This document shows positions 7,210-61,217 of a stretch of 64,000 bases of DNA, in pieces (position 1 is the first letter of the stretch; every line of letters begins with the position of its first letter). This DNA comes from Firmicutes bacterium UBA4882 (GTDB lineage Bacteria; Bacillota; UBA4882). The position numbers and the translations under genes were made by a program. The stretch is taken from contig DHDG01000039.1 in the NCBI GenBank assembly GCA_002399265.1, forward strand, positions 33,847 to 97,846, written 5' to 3'. The notes beneath the pieces are model-generated. The model was not told the origin of the DNA, made no database searches, and saw only the letters and a program-made list of their open reading frames with translations.

Positions 7210-7788
7210 TTACCTATATTGCCCGGAAGGGAAGAGGTTAAGCTCATAGAATCCGGAGGAGGTATCGTCAAAAATCGTCGCAGGATTCTGACCGGCAACT
7301 ACTGACTTGATACTCCACGCCGAGGAAGAGCCATTACCAAGAGTTACCGGAAAATAATAGTGCCGATCTGTAAAAGGCGGGGCTTCTGTCGGAGAATCTG
7401 ACACCACTTGCACCTTGCGCTGCGGATTCTCTTGCGCGTAGCCATCCGGTTTGGCGTTGCGGACAAGTCCGTTCATTGAGAAAATCCCGATGAGCGCCGC
7501 CGCGGCAGCCAACATGAGACCCCGGCTGATCACTTTATGATTACCTGGCACAAATTCTATTGTTACGGAATGGCTTAATTCTTCTTTTACCAATGCTGAG
7601 AAATCATGATAAGGTTTGATGGATTCCAGGCGACCCAACAAACACCGAACCTCTTTCAATTGATCCAGCAAATCGTTGCATTGCCTGCAACTGACCAGGT
7701 GCTGGCGCACCTGCCGTTTTTCTTCAGCATCAAGCTCGTCATCGATAAAAGCCGACAACAGATGTGAAAGACGTGTACAATCCATCAT
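7210..7788 (-). CDS. Anti-sigma factor, zinc-binding (ZAS-type HxxxCxxC) with one transmembrane segment
   Basis: The N-terminal helix MMDCTRLSHLLSAFIDDELD plus the HLVSCRQC motif are typical. A TM segment follows (LMLAAAAALIGIF). GAGGAGG lies 7 nt upstream of the ATG at 7788, and the gene starts 4 nt after the sigma factor stop. Confidence 0.75.
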   Translation of the reverse strand: MMDCTRLSHLLSAFIDDELDAEEKRQVRQHLVSCRQCNDLLDQLKEVRCLLGRLESIKPYHDFSALVKEELSHSVTIEFVPGNHKVISRGLMLAAAAALIGIFSMNGLVRNAKPDGYAQENPQRKVQVVSDSPTEAPPFTDRHYYFPVTLGNGSSSAWSIKSVVAGQNPATIFDDTSSGFYELNLFPSGQYR

Positions 7789-7792
7789 CACA

Positions 7793-8383
7793 CTACCTCC
7801 TCTCACTACTGGAGGCTAAATAGGGCTGGAGTAATTCCCGCAGCTGCCTGCGCCCCCGGTGAATACGGGAACGAACCGTACCAATCGAACAATTTAAAAT
7901 GTGCGAAATCTCCTCATATGAAAAACCTTGCACGTCGCAGAGTATAATTGCGGCGCGAAACTCGGGTGACAGTGTTTTCAATGCCTTGGCGAGAACCCCC
8001 TGAAACTCCAAGCTTTCATAATCCTCAACTGGTCCCGCCGAATTGTCCGCAAGCTCACGCGTAATATCGCCCTCACTGGTACGTATGGGATTATCAAGTG
8101 ATTCCTGACGAATTTTGCGATTCTTACGTACATGATCCAGATAAAGATTATGAATGATACGGTATACCCAGCGGTCAAAACATGTTCCGGGAGTAAACTT
8201 GTCGTAATTCTTATAAGCCCGATAGAATGCCTCCTGAGTCAAATCCTTGGCCTCTTCGGGGTCGCCGGTCAGCCGGTAAGCAAAGTTGTACAGAGCGCGC
8301 TCATGCGTTTGCACCAGTTTCTCAAAAGAATCCCAGCCGTTTTCAAGACCAGTCGGCAATGAGAGCGCTTTGGATTGCAGCAT
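7793..8383 (-). CDS. ECF-family RNA polymerase sigma factor (sigma-70 regions 2 and 4)
   Basis: Sigma region 2 (DLTQEAFYRAYKN) and region 4 (EEISHILNCSIGTVRSRIHRGR) are present. The gene is directly followed by the anti-sigma gene. Confidence 0.85.
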   Translation of the reverse strand: MLQSKALSLPTGLENGWDSFEKLVQTHERALYNFAYRLTGDPEEAKDLTQEAFYRAYKNYDKFTPGTCFDRWVYRIIHNLYLDHVRKNRKIRQESLDNPIRTSEGDITRELADNSAGPVEDYESLEFQGVLAKALKTLSPEFRAAIILCDVQGFSYEEISHILNCSIGTVRSRIHRGRRQLRELLQPYLASSSERR

Positions 8384-42457: not shown

Positions 42458-42814
42458 ATGGGCAGTGGGCAAAAATCTAATACTCCTGTTGTTCAGCAGG
42501 CATATAAAGCCCTGGATCAATTCAAATATGAAGTTGCCAATGAGCTTGGCATTGATCAAAACCAGATCTACGGCGGCTACTGGGGCAACCTAACTTCTCG
42601 CGACTGCGGAGCAGTCGGGGGACATATGGTACGCCGCATGATTGAAGCTGCTGAACGTTCCCTGGCCGAACAGACTATGGCAGGCGTAAAAACCGGCTTC
42701 CAGTCGGCTTTCAACGCTAGCAGCAATCTGAACGTCAATCCGAACAATATTACCGGTACGAAACCCAGTTTCACCCAGTCTCCGTCCAGTGAGGGACCCA
42801 CTCGTTACGTATAA
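42458..42814 (+). CDS. Small acid-soluble spore protein, alpha/beta type, with ~45-aa Q/N/S-rich C-terminal extension
   Basis: The SASP signatures KALDQFKYEVANELGI and GGHMVRRMIEAAE are present. A strong RBS AGGAGGTGAT is present. Confidence 0.85.
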   Translation: MGSGQKSNTPVVQQAYKALDQFKYEVANELGIDQNQIYGGYWGNLTSRDCGAVGGHMVRRMIEAAERSLAEQTMAGVKTGFQSAFNASSNLNVNPNNITGTKPSFTQSPSSEGPTRYV

Positions 42815-42870
42815 TAGTTCCTGTATAAGCAAATAAGCAAATTCCCAAATAACACATGGAGGTGTAATTC

Positions 42871-43203
42871 ATGGGTAGTGGACAGAGAAGCAATGCTCCC
42901 GTAGTCCAGCAGGCGTACAAAGCCCTGGATCAGTTTAAATACGAAATCGCCAATGAGCTCGGCATTGATCAGAATCAAATCTATGGCGGTTACTGGGGTA
43001 ACCTGACCTCCCGTGACTGCGGAGCAGTCGGAGGTCATATGGTACGGCGCATGATCGAAGCTGCTGAACAATCATTGGCTCAGCAGGCCCTGGCTGGTAT
43101 GAAAACCGGATTCCAGACCGGCTTTAATGCGGCGGGAAGCAACCCGAACCAGAGTGTGAAAATCGGCACCACACCAAACCAAGGTCCGAATACCTATCAG
43201 TAA
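42871..43203 (+). CDS. Small acid-soluble spore protein, alpha/beta type (second tandem copy), extended C-terminus
   Basis: The conserved core is the same. RBS GGAGGTG is present. Confidence 0.85.
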   Translation: MGSGQRSNAPVVQQAYKALDQFKYEIANELGIDQNQIYGGYWGNLTSRDCGAVGGHMVRRMIEAAEQSLAQQALAGMKTGFQTGFNAAGSNPNQSVKIGTTPNQGPNTYQ

Positions 43204-54134: not shown

Positions 54135-55612
54135 GCTTGCTCCTCCTCCAGAATGTGCTTGCTTCCGCAGTCGCAGCCCCGCGGTATGCCAAATGGATAT
54201 TCTCCGTTAAAGCAGGCTAGACAAAGTCCGTCCGGCAGACCGATCGATTGCTGCAAGCCTTCAATCGTCTGGAAATGCAGTGAATCTGCACCAATAGAGC
54301 GGCGCATCTCATCCACCGAACAAGTAGCGGCAATCAGTTCACGGCTAGCCGAAATATCAATTCCGTAAAAGCAAGGGTATTTAAGGGGCGGTGAACTGAT
54401 AAACATGTGCACCTCTTTTGCTCCAGCCTCATGCAACATTTTGACCAAGAGCTTACTGGTCGTGCCTCTGACAATCGAATCGTCGATGATGACAATCCGT
54501 TTGCCTCTTAAGATCTGGCTGATCGGATGCAGCTTCAGGTTAACCCCCATGTTGCGCTCCGCCTGAAGCGGCCTAATAAAGGTTCTTCCCACATAACGAT
54601 TCACTACCAGCGCGGTATCAAGCGGTAATCCCGATTGTTCGGCGTACCCGATCGCTGTGGAAAAACCGCTCTCTGGAACTGGTACTACCAAATCGGCGTC
54701 AATCTCACTGACCCGCGCTAGTTGGCGTCCCATTTCCTTCCTGGTTTCGTGAACCAGTCGTCCCTCAATGACACTGTCCGCTCTGGAAAAATAGACGAAC
54801 TCCATAGCGCACAGAGCCCGTTTAGTCGGTGGCAACACGCGCTGCGAGCGTATACCATCCGGAGACAAAATCACCATTTCCCCGGGGTCGATATCACGCA
54901 AGACTTCTCCACCAATAGAACTGATCGCGCTCGATTCAGAAGCCACGACATAGCCTTCCGGCACGATCCCGAGGGACAGGGGGCGATTGCCGCCACCGTC
55001 CCTGACAGCGTAAACAGTATTACCGTGCAGAACGACCAGCGAAAAACTACCTTTTAATTTGGACACCGTTTTGCGGATCGCTGATTCGATCGATTCCGTA
55101 CTATATCTGGCAATTAAATTTAAGATTACTTCTGTGTCAGAAGTAGTTTGAAATACTGAACCGCCCTGCGCCAGTTCGTCGCAGAGGGCGGCAGTATTGA
55201 TCAAATTCCCATTATGAGCGACCGCCAGCATGCCCTTCAGACAACGTGCCACGATCGGCTGTGCGTTCACTACTGAGCTGGTGCCGGTCGTTGAGTAACG
55301 CACATGCCCGATTGCTGAGGTTCCAATCAAACCGTCGATAATCGTTTCGTCAAAGACATGCCGGACCATGCCCATGTTTTTATGACAGATCATTTTATGA
55401 CCGTCCGACACGGTGATTCCGGCACTCTCTTGACCGCGGTGCTGCAGTGCATATAACCCCATATAAGACATGCGCGCTGCAGCGCAACCTGAACGCCCGG
55501 CCACCCCAAACACGCCGCATTCCTCGTGCAGACGATCCTCAAAGATGTCTTCTGAGCCTTCCACTGCGCCTGCTATTGGGCCTTCATGCAGTTGGCAATA
55601 CTGTTTTTCCAT
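54125..55612 (-). CDS. purF: Amidophosphoribosyltransferase (with ~30-aa propeptide before the catalytic Cys)
   Basis: The motif ECGVFGV, a PRTase motif, and [4Fe-4S] Cys residues are present. The ATG at 55612 overlaps the purL 3' end by 40 nt. Confidence 0.9.
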
Positions 55613-58572
55613 CTCTGCTCCATCTCCCTTACGGGTACGTCGACACAGGGGGACGGTTCTTCTGTGCTATTTTGATCGCAACAACAAGAGCAAGCGTACT
55701 TTCCCTGTTTAGCTGGCTCGATTGTGATTTGCAGATTCATACCGCCCACTGTTCCCAGTTTAGTAGCACTAATGCCATAATGTCCGGCAAGCTCCACGAT
55801 TGCCGCCGACGACTCCGCCGGAGCTGAGATCAAAATCCGGCTTTGGCTCTCACCGAATAACAGCGCATCGGGCCTGATCAAATTGGAATTAGAATCGGTA
55901 GCCGGCAGGCGCAGTGTGGCACCTTTACCGCCGGCAATACAGCATTCTGCGGCTGCAACCGCCAGACCACCCTCGCTGAGATCATGCGCCGAAACAATGA
56001 GGCTCCGGTCAATGAGCTCCAGAATCAGACTAATCAGCTGCTTCTCTTTCTTAAGATCAAGTTCTGGAACTCGGCCAGCAACCGTTTGGGCACAGACCTT
56101 CAAATACTCGCTGCCGCCAAGCTCTTCCCTGGTCTCGCCCAGCAGAATGACACTGTGGTCCTCTACTTTAAAGGCCATGTCGCATCTTTTGCTAATGTCG
56201 TTTATGAGCCCGAGCATGCCAATAATCGGCGACGGGTAGATCGGCTGGCCGTTGGTTTCGTTGTAAAAACTAACATTACCGCCGATCACCGGCGTTTCAA
56301 GTTCTCGGCAAGCGTCGGCAATCCCGTCAACCCCTCTGGCGAATTGCCAATAAACATCGGGCTTCTCCGGATTACCGTAGTTCAGCCCATCAGTGACTGC
56401 CACCGGTTTGGCACCTGTGCAAGCTACGTTCCGAGCGGCTTCCGCGACTGCAGCAGCTGCACCGGTATAGGGATCGAGATAGCAAAGACGCCCGTTACCA
56501 TCGATTGAAAACGCAATACCCTTTTGCGTATCTTTTACGCGCAAAACAGCAGCATCCGCACTGCCAGGGACGAGTACCGTATTATTTTGGATCATATGAT
56601 CGTATTGCCGATACACCCATTCTTTACTGGCTATGCCCGGAGACGCCAACAGCTTCAGCAGGCACGCATTAAAATCGGACGGCAAAGGGACTGCGTTCAT
56701 ATCATAGTTATTCAGCTCGTCAAGATAGGCGGGCTTTTCACATTCAGTAACGTACTTTGGAGCACCTTGCGTTGACAATGACCAGGCCGGTACTTCTGCC
56801 ACCACTTGGGGTCCTTCATAAAGTCGCAGCATGCCATCGTCGGTTACGGTGCCGACAATATTACAATCCAAACCCCAGCGCTCATAAATGGCGGTGACCG
56901 CTTCCTCGCAACCCGGCTTGGGCACGAGCAGCATCCGTTCCTGAGACTCCGAAAGCATCATTTCATAGGGTGTGATACCTTCTTCGCGGCGTGGCACTTT
57001 CAGCAAATCCATTTCAATGCCGGTATCGGCTCTGGCAGCCATTTCACAAGCTGAGCTGGTCAATCCGGCTGCTCCCATATCCTGAACCCCAACAAGCAAT
57101 TTTGCTTTGATTACTTCCAGAGTAGCTTCAATGAGCAGTTTCTCGGTAAAGGGGTCGCCAACCTGAACGGCGGGCCTTTTTTCTTCGGAGTTTTCATTGA
57201 GCTCACCAGAAGCAAAGCTGGCACCTAAAATGCCATCGCGTCCAGTATTGGCACCAGCCACCATTACAGCATTGCCGACGCCACTAGCGGAAGCGGTGAT
57301 AATATCGTCTGTTTTAGCCAATCCAACACACATCACGTTGACAAGAGGATTACCATAATAACAAGAATCAAACTGAATCTCGCCGCCAATAGTTGGCACG
57401 CCGACACAATTACCATATCCGGCGATGCCAGACACTACGCCCGAAAATAAGTAACGGGTGCGGTCATCCGTCAGTGGACTAAAGCGCAGCGAATTCAGAC
57501 AAGCAACCGGCCGGGCGCCCATAGTGAAGATATCGCGCAGAATGCCGCCAATGCCGGTAGCTGCTCCCTGATAAGGCTCGATCGCCGAAGGATGATTATG
57601 GCTTTCTACTTTCATCACGACCGCCATACCATCGCCAATGTCGATAATGCCGGCGTTTTCACCCGGTCCCTGCAGAATATGGGGGCCTTCTGTAGGAAAG
57701 CGCGAGAATAAAGCCCGGGAATGTTTGTAGGCACAATGTTCAGACCACAGAGCGGCGAACATACCTAATTCAGTAAGATTCGGTTCACGACCAAGCTGGC
57801 TGATGATTCTGTCGTATTCGGCAGAAGTAAGGCCAAGCTCAACTGCTTTTGCTCTCATGCTCATGCTGTCCACCTGCCGCTTCCTGATTAGTGACTTGAT
57901 GATCGACTTAAAAATGTAATTGCCGTCTTCAGAGCCGAGAATGCTTTCCCCGGCCCGCTCTGGATGCGGCATCAGTCCAAAAACGTTGCCGCTTTCATTA
58001 ACAATACCCGCGATATTGGCGACGGAACCATTTGGATTATGCTCGGGAAGCACCGTTCCATTAGAACCGCAATAGCTTAGAACAATACCGCCATAACCGC
58101 GCAAGCGCTCCAAGCCTGTCTCATCAATATAGAAATTGCCGTCCATGTGGGCAATGGGGATGCTCAAAACTTGATCAGGAGTACAGGTGTTCGTAAAAAT
58201 GGTTTCGTTATTTTCAACCTTTAAAAATGTATTATTGCAAATAAAACTGATTCCCTCATTGCGCCGCAGCGCGCCGGGGAGTAAGCCAGACTCCGTCAGA
58301 ATTTGAAAGCCGTTACAGATGCCAATCACTGGACCACCAGATTCCGCAAAACGTCGGACAGCTTCCATGATTGGGGAAAAACGGGCAATCGCGCCTGGAC
58401 GCAAATAATCGCCATAAGAAAAGCCTCCGGGCAGAACGATCGCATCGATATCATTGAACGCCTGCTCACCGTGCCAAATATATTCGGTCTCTTGCTGCAG
58501 CACATCTTCCAGCGCGTGACGGCAATCATCGTCGCAGTTCGATCCCGGGAAAACAACTATTCCAAAGCGCAT
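55573..58572 (-). CDS. purQL: Fused PurQ-PurL: N-terminal glutamine amidotransferase (aa 1-236) joined in-frame to FGAM synthase II (aa 237-999)
   Basis: The PurQ catalytic region (GICNGFQIL...HPER) is followed, with no stop, by a canonical PurL N-terminus [18 protein letters not shown]...[10 protein letters not shown]. An internal ATG at 57864 is preceded by AGGTGG 5 nt upstream. The PurL C-terminus matches the expected ...ELxRAWKxxIxxxLK ending. Confidence 0.85.
55642..55666. repeat. 25-nt repeat copy 2 (GACACAGGGGGACGGTTCTTCTGTG), inside the purL 3' coding region, 30 nt upstream of the purF ATG
   Basis: 24/25 identity with 60511..60535. It contains an imperfect inverted repeat. It encodes ...TEEPSPCVD... 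in PurL. Confidence 0.7.
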
Positions 58573-60261: not shown

Positions 60262-60330
60262 TTGCGAACCTCCCCGCCTATTTTCCTATTCTCAATATGC
60301 TCCAAAAATCGGTGATTCAGCAAACGCTTT

Positions 60331-60369
60331 CAAAAAAATAAGCAGACAGAACCGGATAATTCTGTCCGC
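60331..60369 (-). terminator. Intrinsic terminator-like hairpin in the purB 5' leader (between promoter and RBS): candidate attenuator
   Basis: On the minus strand, a 10-bp stem gcggacagaa/uucugucugc with an 8-nt loop is followed by UUAUUUUUUUG. It lies ~40 nt downstream of the predicted +1. Confidence 0.5.
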
Positions 60370-60413
60370 CGGAGTCTATCACTTCGTGGCGTAGCGCGTG
60401 GCGTGACACCTAA

Positions 60414-60442
60414 ATTGTACAAGTACTGTTGTCGGTTGTCAA
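60414..60442 (-). promoter_or_regulatory. Sigma-A promoter upstream of purB (TTGACA-17-TACAAT)
   Basis: A perfect -35 and a near-perfect -10 with a 17-nt spacer on the minus strand. Confidence 0.6.
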
Positions 60443-60510: not shown

Positions 60511-60535
60511 GACACAGGGGGACGGTTCTCCTGTG
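60511..60535. repeat. 25-nt repeat copy 1 (GACACAGGGGGACGGTTCTCCTGTG) forming an 8-bp-stem hairpin, immediately after the purE stop
   Basis: The perfect inverted arms GACACAGG/CCTGTGTC (60511-18 / 60530-37) flank an 11-nt loop. It is 24/25 identical to 55642..55666. Confidence 0.7.
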
Positions 60536-60538
60536 TCC

Positions 60539-61039
60539 CTAATAATTGCGCCAGCCATTTTGCTGGAGGCGGTTGTCTTTATCTAAAACCTGTTGTACCA
60601 TGCGTGCTTTGTATGCTTTCATTTTTTCGCGCAATGCTGCGTCGGACAGGCTTAGTATTTGCACGGCCAGAATCCCGGCGTTACGGGCAGCCCCCACTCC
60701 TACGCAGGCAACCGGTATTCCTGATGGCATCTGCACCATGGAAAGCAATGAATCAAGTCCACTAAGGCTCGCACCCAGAATCGGTACCGCAATGACCGGC
60801 AACGTTGTTTCGGAGGCAATTACGCCCGCCAAATGGGCTGCACCGCCAGCTCCAGCGATAATTGCACCGAAACCCTCTGCAGCGGCGGCTTTGGCAAATG
60901 CAGTTGTCTGATCCGGAGTCCGATGCGCCGATAAAATGCGCATACAATATTCGACCCCAAACTCCTCCAGCACCTCGCCGGCCGCTTTCATGATCCCTAA
61001 ATCGGAGTCGCTGCCCATCATGATGGCAACTTTCTGCAT
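60539..61039 (-). CDS. purE: N5-carboxyaminoimidazole ribonucleotide mutase PurE
   Basis: The N-terminus MQKVAIMMGSDSDL and the PurE fold are present. RBS GAGGAGG lies 8 nt upstream. Confidence 0.9.
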   Translation of the reverse strand: MQKVAIMMGSDSDLGIMKAAGEVLEEFGVEYCMRILSAHRTPDQTTAFAKAAAAEGFGAIIAGAGGAAHLAGVIASETTLPVIAVPILGASLSGLDSLLSMVQMPSGIPVACVGVGAARNAGILAVQILSLSDAALREKMKAYKARMVQQVLDKDNRLQQNGWRNY

Positions 61040-61217
61040 TTTGCCAGCCTCCTCGCATCTAGATTTTTATTAAGTCGTATATCTTAATTTTAGCGTTTTA
61101 AAGCATAGTAACTAGACGCATGGGACACAACCTGCTGCCCACTGCTCAGCCCAGCACTTGCACAATAATAGGAGCAACCACTTTTTGTCGCGGCCGCTCC
61201 ATCCGAATGAAAAGTAA

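Follow-up and report, generated by a model that had tools for sequence, protein, structure and literature searches.

What is a perfect palindrome doing immediately behind the stop codon of purE, and does it have anything to do with the purine genes among which it stands? An earlier note on the window (the whole 64-kb stretch of DNA that was analysed) had drawn attention to this hairpin and to a second copy of the same repeat at another junction of the purine array, and had suggested that they mark boundaries of the array, as operators for a purine regulator or as RNA stability or processing signals. We think it highly probable, from comparison of sequences, that the purE hairpin belongs instead to a family of mobile palindromes, REP/REPIN-like and resembling the TIRtrons, a family whose copies in other genomes are associated with a RAYT-type transposase.

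The hairpin itself is real. On the minus strand one reads ATTATTAG, then G GACACAGG AGAACCGTCCC CCTGTGTC AAATG, and the element proper (GACACAGG-AGAACCGTCCC-CCTGTGTC, a singlet of 27 nt at 60511-60537, minus strand) is made of an 8-bp stem, 60511-60518 paired with 60530-60537 with no mismatch, and an 11-nt loop; the 25-nt repeat common to both copies of the window corresponds to 60511-60535. The gene purE (60539-61039, minus strand) codes for an AIR carboxylase/mutase of 166 aa (Pfam AIRC) and, since its TAG occupies 60539-60541, the stem begins 1 nt 3' of the stop codon. The earlier note rightly held that this is not a classical terminator: there is no T/U run on its 3' side, where AAAUGUCAG follows instead, a terminator scan of the minus strand did not call the site, and Rfam gave no match at the hairpin, whether the entire window was searched at the gathering threshold or the site itself at E <= 10. 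The strong promoter placed some 70 nt further on was confirmed as well; it is a sigma-70-type promoter of the purB leader (TTGACA-17-TACAAT, 60414-60442, minus strand), 69 nt downstream of the element. The leader also contains a terminator-like hairpin with a T-run (60341-60370, minus strand), which is outside the repeat and is kept in relatives. On the other side of purE, another terminator-like, GC-rich hairpin (61171-61200, minus strand) is found in the 178-nt spacer between a xanthine/uracil permease gene and purE, and may be a leader or attenuator of purE.

Folded alone, the RNA of the purE hairpin (41 nt) has a free energy of -13.3 kcal/mol (z -2.55, 1 of 200 shuffles) and the DNA one of -7.9 kcal/mol (z -3.2). 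We estimate, however, that about 15 hairpins of 8 bp are expected by chance in 64 kb, so that a stem of this length is common in itself and the significance of this one lies in its membership of a repeat family, from the consensus of which it differs at 0 positions.

The second copy announced by the earlier note exists (24 of 25 positions identical to the purE-site repeat, at 55642-55666), but it is not in the purL/purF junction; it lies inside the purL ORF, near the 3' end of a purQ-purL ORF (55573-58572) and 30 nt upstream of the ATG of purF (55612), whose start overlaps purL. The complete element, AGCACAGA-AGAACCGTCCC-CCTGTGTC (55642-55668, minus strand), is in frame within purL, where it encodes S-T-E-E-P-S-P-C-V, and its hairpin is weaker than that of purE (6 bp, -5.9 kcal/mol). 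This copy is fixed in 7 conspecific contigs and lies in a length-variable loop near the C-terminus of PurL, the protein being about 15-20 residues longer there than most of its homologues; the protein search retrieved mainly fragments, and we use it only to show that the insertion falls in a variable loop. A PurL fragment from a 'Clostridia bacterium' (P0045) has an unrelated insertion of about 25 aa in the same C-terminal loop (alignment columns 300-330), which seems to be tolerant of insertions. In a sister species (PurE 89% identical) the element is also present in purL, with two in-frame differences from the window: a 48-nt block upstream of the copy (55675-55722, minus strand) is missing, and a 9-nt partial-unit duplication is present. 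Within this block, 55684-55708 looks like a decayed inverted arm (ACAGGGAAAGTACGCTTGCTCTTGT versus ACAGGGGGACGGTTCTCTTGT; local alignment score 22, 1 of 2000 shuffles), a likeness to be taken as suggestive only, because the variant was picked after the fact; the purL insertion may thus once have been a doublet, of which the 48-nt block would be a possible remnant. As an aside, purQ and purL are fused into one ORF of 999 aa (55573-58572, minus strand) in the window strain and in the contig L009, by a 2-nt (AG) deletion near the 3' end of purQ (near 57880); in the other strains of the species, purQ (237 aa) and purL (763 aa) are distinct genes that overlap.

These two sites belong to a large family. 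Scanning 185,579 species genomes with a 19-mer core, AGAACCGTCCCCCTGTGTC, which contains a stop codon in none of its six frames (as read from the sequence), gave more than 110 stretches from dozens of mostly Clostridia genomes, where we would expect about 4 by chance according to our own estimate. Among the matches listed, the hosts include Syntrophomonas, Pelotomaculum, Thermacetogenium, Desulfotomaculum, Desulfoscipio, Halanaerobiales, Alkaliphilus, Anaerovoracaceae and Oscillospiraceae, together with, outside Clostridia-type Bacillota, some MAGs of Coriobacteriales, Actinomycetes and Bacteroidales; three matches without the 5' stem arm (L035, L094 and L098, from Bacilli and Acidobacteriaceae) are possibly chance or coding matches and were left out of the family. 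Copies occur as singlets, as inverted doublets with long perfect stems, as direct arrays with periods of 24-45 nt, and with partial-unit tails such as CCCCTGTGTC. Isolated copies number 98, single MAGs carry at least 14-15 exact-core copies, and Syntrophomonas erecta has about 6 copies in 20 kb, compared with 2 in the 64 kb of our source DNA. The S. erecta stretch (L214) also contains, at 1502, 5356 and 13817, members of a second subfamily, whose covarying stem reads GGAAGC...GCTTCC and whose loop, RGGACCGTYCCC, departs slightly from the usual one, in the same 20 kb as a RAYT-like gene. In MAGs of Coriobacteriales (L024, L071), Actinomycetes (L072) and Prevotellaceae (L014), inverted doublets are found inside long ORFs (510-984 aa), which would mean in-frame intragenic insertion and presence across phyla, unless the contigs are mis-binned. 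In the search for vehicles of spread, IMG/VR viral contigs yielded no match to the core, and PLSDB plasmids none to the doublet. To our knowledge, work on REP/RAYT systems has been almost confined to Proteobacteria, and our search of the literature for this sequence and for REP/RAYT in Firmicutes or Clostridia found no description; it is apparently an undescribed family of a known kind.

What defines the family is its loop. Among 382 copies gathered by the loop alone, GAACCGTCCCC is invariant and the stem, of 6-8 bp, varies. The variation is compensatory, with pairs of arms such as GGTGTCAA/TTGACACC, TATATC/GATATA and CAATCAC/GTGATTG: in these copies pairing is found in 68% of cells, where shuffles give 53.9 +/- 1.1, and double-change cells number 132, against 64.7 +/- 7.1; neither observed value was reached in any of 500 shuffles, and the slid controls lay at 27-48%. 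In the most frequent subfamily, about half of the copies have A.C mismatches at the two inner pairs, so that the perfect 8-bp stem at purE is one variant among others. The edges of the unit are sharp at 27 nt, beyond which the flanks are random except for a weak A-A-T preference on the 5' side.

The location of the copies is that of an element which mostly avoids genes and often follows them. ORFs of 150 aa or more contain only 26% of them, compared with 85% of background positions; clusters fall 72 times in tandem, 21 times in convergent and 9 times in divergent spacers, and 31 of 174 are intragenic. The distance from a singlet to a stop codon is at most 18 nt in 30 of 57 cases.

A partner gene emerges from the neighbourhood of the copies. 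When all ORFs of 110 core-bearing loci were clustered for recurrent neighbours, the only informative one was a protein of about 250 aa with the Pfam domain Y1_Tnp (IS200-like), encoded at six loci, each in a different genome; the other recurrent neighbours were only generic ABC transporters. In each complete case among these six loci, the gene is flanked by inverted copies of the repeat, those upstream reading GACACAGGGGGACGGTTCT and those downstream AGAACCGTCCCCCTGTGTC. The same arrangement is recovered independently of the motif: in 80 metagenome loci fetched by the protein alone, a 17-nt core (with up to 3 mismatches) was found at 25, with about 0.5 matches expected by chance. There, 31 of 34 upstream copies are in one orientation, mainly 65-80 nt before the start of the transposase gene, and 19 of 21 downstream copies are in the opposite orientation, mainly 11-23 nt past its stop codon. 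At the 55 remaining RAYT-like loci the core did not appear; many of these have short flanks, and others presumably carry different variants of the repeat. The layout is not peculiar to metagenomes, as the complete genome of the isolate Syntrophomonas erecta has the same transposase gene between inverted copies, with more copies within 20 kb.

This protein is best, and solely, matched among NCBIfam models by REP_Tyr_transpos (NF047646), with 70.7-72 bits, under the curated cut-off of 80. The HUH and Y motifs are present, and a profile of the family searched against PDB matched only the TnpAREP of E. coli (4ER8), with no match to the TnpA of IS608 or ISDra2; phmmer with one RAYT-like protein gave nothing meaningful in PDB. 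After the Y1 core comes a C-terminal extension of about 120 aa with the conserved GLSIRQISRxTG..IVRK, in which a helix-turn-helix (HTH) is detected at sub-threshold level only (HTH_38, E 0.05; HTH_58, E 0.23) and which is similar by BLASTP to region 4 of sigma-70. The family counts about 8000 proteins at E <= 1e-20, named in their sources 'transposase' or 'REP element-mobilizing transposase RayT'. The 64-kb window has no RAYT-like gene: its sole tblastn match (7871-8272) was rejected as such, being an ECF sigma factor with an HTH like that of the RAYT tail. This sigma factor gene (Sigma70_r2/r4) and an adjacent zf-HC2 anti-sigma gene occupy 7210-8383 (minus strand). Also within the window, the largest direct repeat (42458-43203, plus strand; 260 nt, 79% identity) corresponds to two paralogous genes in tandem, both for small acid-soluble spore proteins of alpha/beta type, which indicates a spore-forming Firmicute.

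The history of the purE site can be read from close relatives. Many metagenome contigs and MAGs of one species (labelled 'Firmicutes bacterium' by NCBI) encode an identical PurE, and in 8 of 10 conspecific contigs purE is followed by an inverted doublet, GGACACAGG-GGGACGGTTCT-CCTGTGTC tttctcagtgtctttgg GGACACAGG-AGAACCGTCCC-CCTGTGTC, with copies 17 nt apart, which folds as a 27-bp stem of -62.8 kcal/mol. The singlet allele, 45 nt shorter, is that of the window and of L009, which is 99.97% identical to it; strains with the doublet match the window at about 98.8%. The change from one allele to the other is explained by a deletion or a duplication between the direct GGACACAGG arms. We compared the orthologous purE-purB spacer in three related species whose PurE is 93%, 89% and 87% identical. 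The 93% and 87% species have no copy in this spacer, and the 89% species has a decayed one, GGGACATAGGAGAACCGTCCCGCTGTGCTC; the filler between the purE stop codon and a conserved TGTCAGAAAATTG block differs among them, and the purB promoter and leader terminator are kept in all three, with or without the element. It is the conserved promoter and leader that constitute the true regulatory signals between purE and purB.

The purB leader deserves a remark in its own right. It extends over 60262-60442 (minus strand) in the window, with counterparts in the three related species (L208, 6640-6950; L211, 2440-2750; L213, 2440-2690) that are about 110-170 nt longer and show a weak, full-length likeness to the ykkC/Guanidine-I aptamer (14.7 bits, E 2.4, below the gathering threshold of 63), through the motifs GGGUUCCG, GUCUGGUCC and GAUAAAA-CCCGG. 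It may be a divergent ykkC subtype (for example of PRPP type) or a new purine-related riboswitch in these relatives; in the species of the window, most of the aptamer is lost and the terminator is retained.

Several other readings have to be weighed against a mobile repeat. The one that survives best, although we consider it rather unlikely, is compatible with a mobile origin: the copy at purE would have been exapted as an RNA element, stabilising the 3' end of the purE mRNA, serving as a processing or pause site between purE and purB, or perturbing the termination of translation, effects which have all been described for REPs of E. coli. A stable hairpin does stand right behind the stop codon, and between it and the purB promoter there is no other terminator; the family is often found within 18 nt of stop codons, the hairpin of the doublet allele is very stable, and it is established that REPs act on the stability of mRNA and on its translation (Newbury 1987; Liang, Rudd and Deutscher 2015, as they are cited in PMC6006769). 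By analogy, a 3' hairpin of about -13 kcal/mol in the purE transcript could shield it from 3' exonucleases or disturb the termination of translation. Yet the site is not conserved in relatives, singlet and doublet alleles coexist, and the family has no orientation bias relative to the upstream gene (25 in the same and 32 in the opposite orientation); we see no sign of selection for an RNA effect at purE. The role in RNA stability or processing envisaged by the earlier note is not the reason for the presence of this sequence, and any effect on the purE mRNA would be incidental.

That the repeat could be the end of some other mobile element than the Y1 type, in particular a MITE of a DDE-type insertion sequence, strikes us as very improbable. 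Inverted doublets do resemble paired terminal inverted repeats, but no DDE transposase recurs beside the copies, where only the Y1_Tnp gene and the generic ABC transporters do, no target-site duplication is evident in their flanks, and singlets with their own hairpin dominate (the 98 isolated copies).

We give still less credit to an operator for a dimeric purine transcription factor (GACACAGG-N11-CCTGTGTC) marking regulatory boundaries of the pur cluster. This idea had in its favour the perfect inverted half-sites and the two copies within the cluster. However, it is the supposed spacer, that is the loop, which is invariant and asymmetric, and the supposed half-sites covary or are mismatched in about half of the copies; an asymmetric invariant loop with a covarying stem is the opposite of what a dimeric operator should be. 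One of the two copies is within the coding sequence of purL, and elsewhere copies are found in tandem arrays and after stop codons, not in promoters. The earlier note had itself said that its proposal would fall if the motif was absent from orthologous intergenic regions in close relatives and not enriched near purine or nucleotide genes across the genome. At the orthologous site the motif is absent in two species and decaying in a third, despite the conserved promoter, and none of the 110 core-bearing loci of other genomes (722 kb) contains a homologue of any of the 11 pur-cluster proteins; a purine-specific role, be it a boundary mark or an operator, is consequently refuted by that note's own criteria.

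Finally, a chance similarity or an assembly artefact, which the presence of only two copies in the window and a run of Ns at the purE site in one related assembly (L002) might have suggested, has a negligible probability, since 0 of 100 shuffles yield two matches (by our estimate such a pair would arise in 64 kb with a chance of about 3e-4), hundreds of copies exist in independent assemblies and isolate genomes, and singlet and doublet follow strain lineage (99.97% versus about 98.8% identity) with the same assembler for both alleles.

Returning to the mobile repeat, we propose the following scenario. The small elements would correspond to the arrangement of a transposase gene between inverted copies, minus the gene, and would exist as singlets, inverted doublets and arrays, the doublets being the gene-less counterpart of the transposase unit. 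By analogy with TnpAREP and with the TnpA of IS200/IS605 (Ton-Hoang 2012; Messing 2012, PMC3479197), the transposase may recognise the hairpin in single-stranded DNA, here mainly via the loop, and may then cut and rejoin the hairpin DNA. New copies would be seeded preferentially just past stop codons, and the inserted copies would afterwards be reshaped as their own short repeats slip or recombine, which would explain both the singlet of the window as compared with the doublet of other strains and the in-frame indels of purL. The element of the purE site most likely sits there, between purE and the purB promoter, as a neutral passenger.

The first consequence is practical: annotations of this locus should not present the purE hairpin as a site of purine regulation. 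The singlet/doublet polymorphism would offer a marker for strain typing, the purL copy is an example of in-frame insertion into an essential enzyme, and the repeat is also behind assembly gaps (as in L002). The second consequence depends on a broader proposition, which the sequences make conceivable and to which we would give somewhat less than an even chance, namely that a hitherto undescribed REP/REPIN family, its loop constant from class to class and even between phyla above a covarying stem, extends over much of Bacillota in partnership with HTH-bearing RAYTs of Group 1/subclass 2.1. If this is true, the largest and most enigmatic group of RAYTs gains a hairpin substrate, and a family with a loop signature tied to Group-1 RAYTs would supply these enzymes with a defined DNA substrate; one would also be dealing with a REP system that spreads horizontally across deep lineages and inserts in frame into essential genes (purL).

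How does this family compare with known systems? Two resemblances are partial. The purL copy recalls the Rickettsia palindromic elements (RPE) and intragenic REPs in that the in-frame insertion of a palindrome is tolerated in a variable surface loop, but the sequence is unrelated to that of RPE and measures 27 nt, against about 100-150 nt. As in the CGTC-tagged REPs (Di Nocera 2013), a CGTC stands beside a C-rich stem arm; those REPs, however, carry the tag at the base of the palindrome and are not known to have a transposase of their own, whereas our CGTC falls within the loop of an element that does have an associated transposase. With IS200/IS605 the family would share, by analogy, a Y1 HUH transposase acting on subterminal single-stranded hairpins and the existence of non-autonomous hairpin derivatives, but the ends of IS200/IS605 are two different hairpins and not, as here, inverted copies of one.

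The likeness is greater to the REP/BIME/REPIN sequences and their RAYT (TnpAREP) in Escherichia, Pseudomonas and Stenotrophomonas (Nunvar 2010, PMC2817692; Bertels and Rainey 2011, PMC3116915; Ton-Hoang 2012; structure 4ER8). In both systems one finds a short, imperfect palindrome that lies mainly outside genes, on their downstream side, and that occurs as singlets, inverted doublets with long hairpins and clusters, and a single HUH-Y1 transposase gene between inverted copies (seen here in other genomes). The present family differs from these REPs by the absence of the 5' GTAG/GTGG tag (GT[AG]G) at the foot of the hairpin, the conserved determinant being the loop GAACCGTCCCC and not the stem; by a core that stays almost the same throughout many classes of Bacillota and in some MAGs of Actinomycetota and Bacteroidota, whereas classical REPs are lineage-specific; and by its hosts, Gram-positive anaerobes, and its transposase, which measures about 250 aa and has a helix-turn-helix-like tail at its C-terminus.

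The closest known class appears to be that of the TIRtrons and their TIRYT (Di Nocera 2013, PMC3733652), equivalent to TnpAREP subclass 2.1 (Quentin 2018, PMC6006769) and to RAYT Group 1 (Bertels 2017, PMC5581495), by a resemblance of features. Quentin et al. (PMC6006769) reported no REP-like sequences next to subclass 2.1 genes, whereas each flanking repeat described here is itself a covarying hairpin; the published examples of TIRtrons are moreover mostly from Proteobacteria and Acidobacteria, unlike ours. On the other hand, both have a RAYT-like gene with a C-terminal extension (of HTH type in TIRYT, putatively so in our case) and inverted repeats at fixed distances from it, together with moderately abundant families of repeats in the form of monomers, dimers or clusters, and GGGGACGG of our element matches 7 of the 8 positions of the published TIRtron flank motif GGGGWSAS (PMC3733652). 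RAYT Group 1 has itself been reported in Clostridia, with signs of horizontal transfer (PMC5581495).
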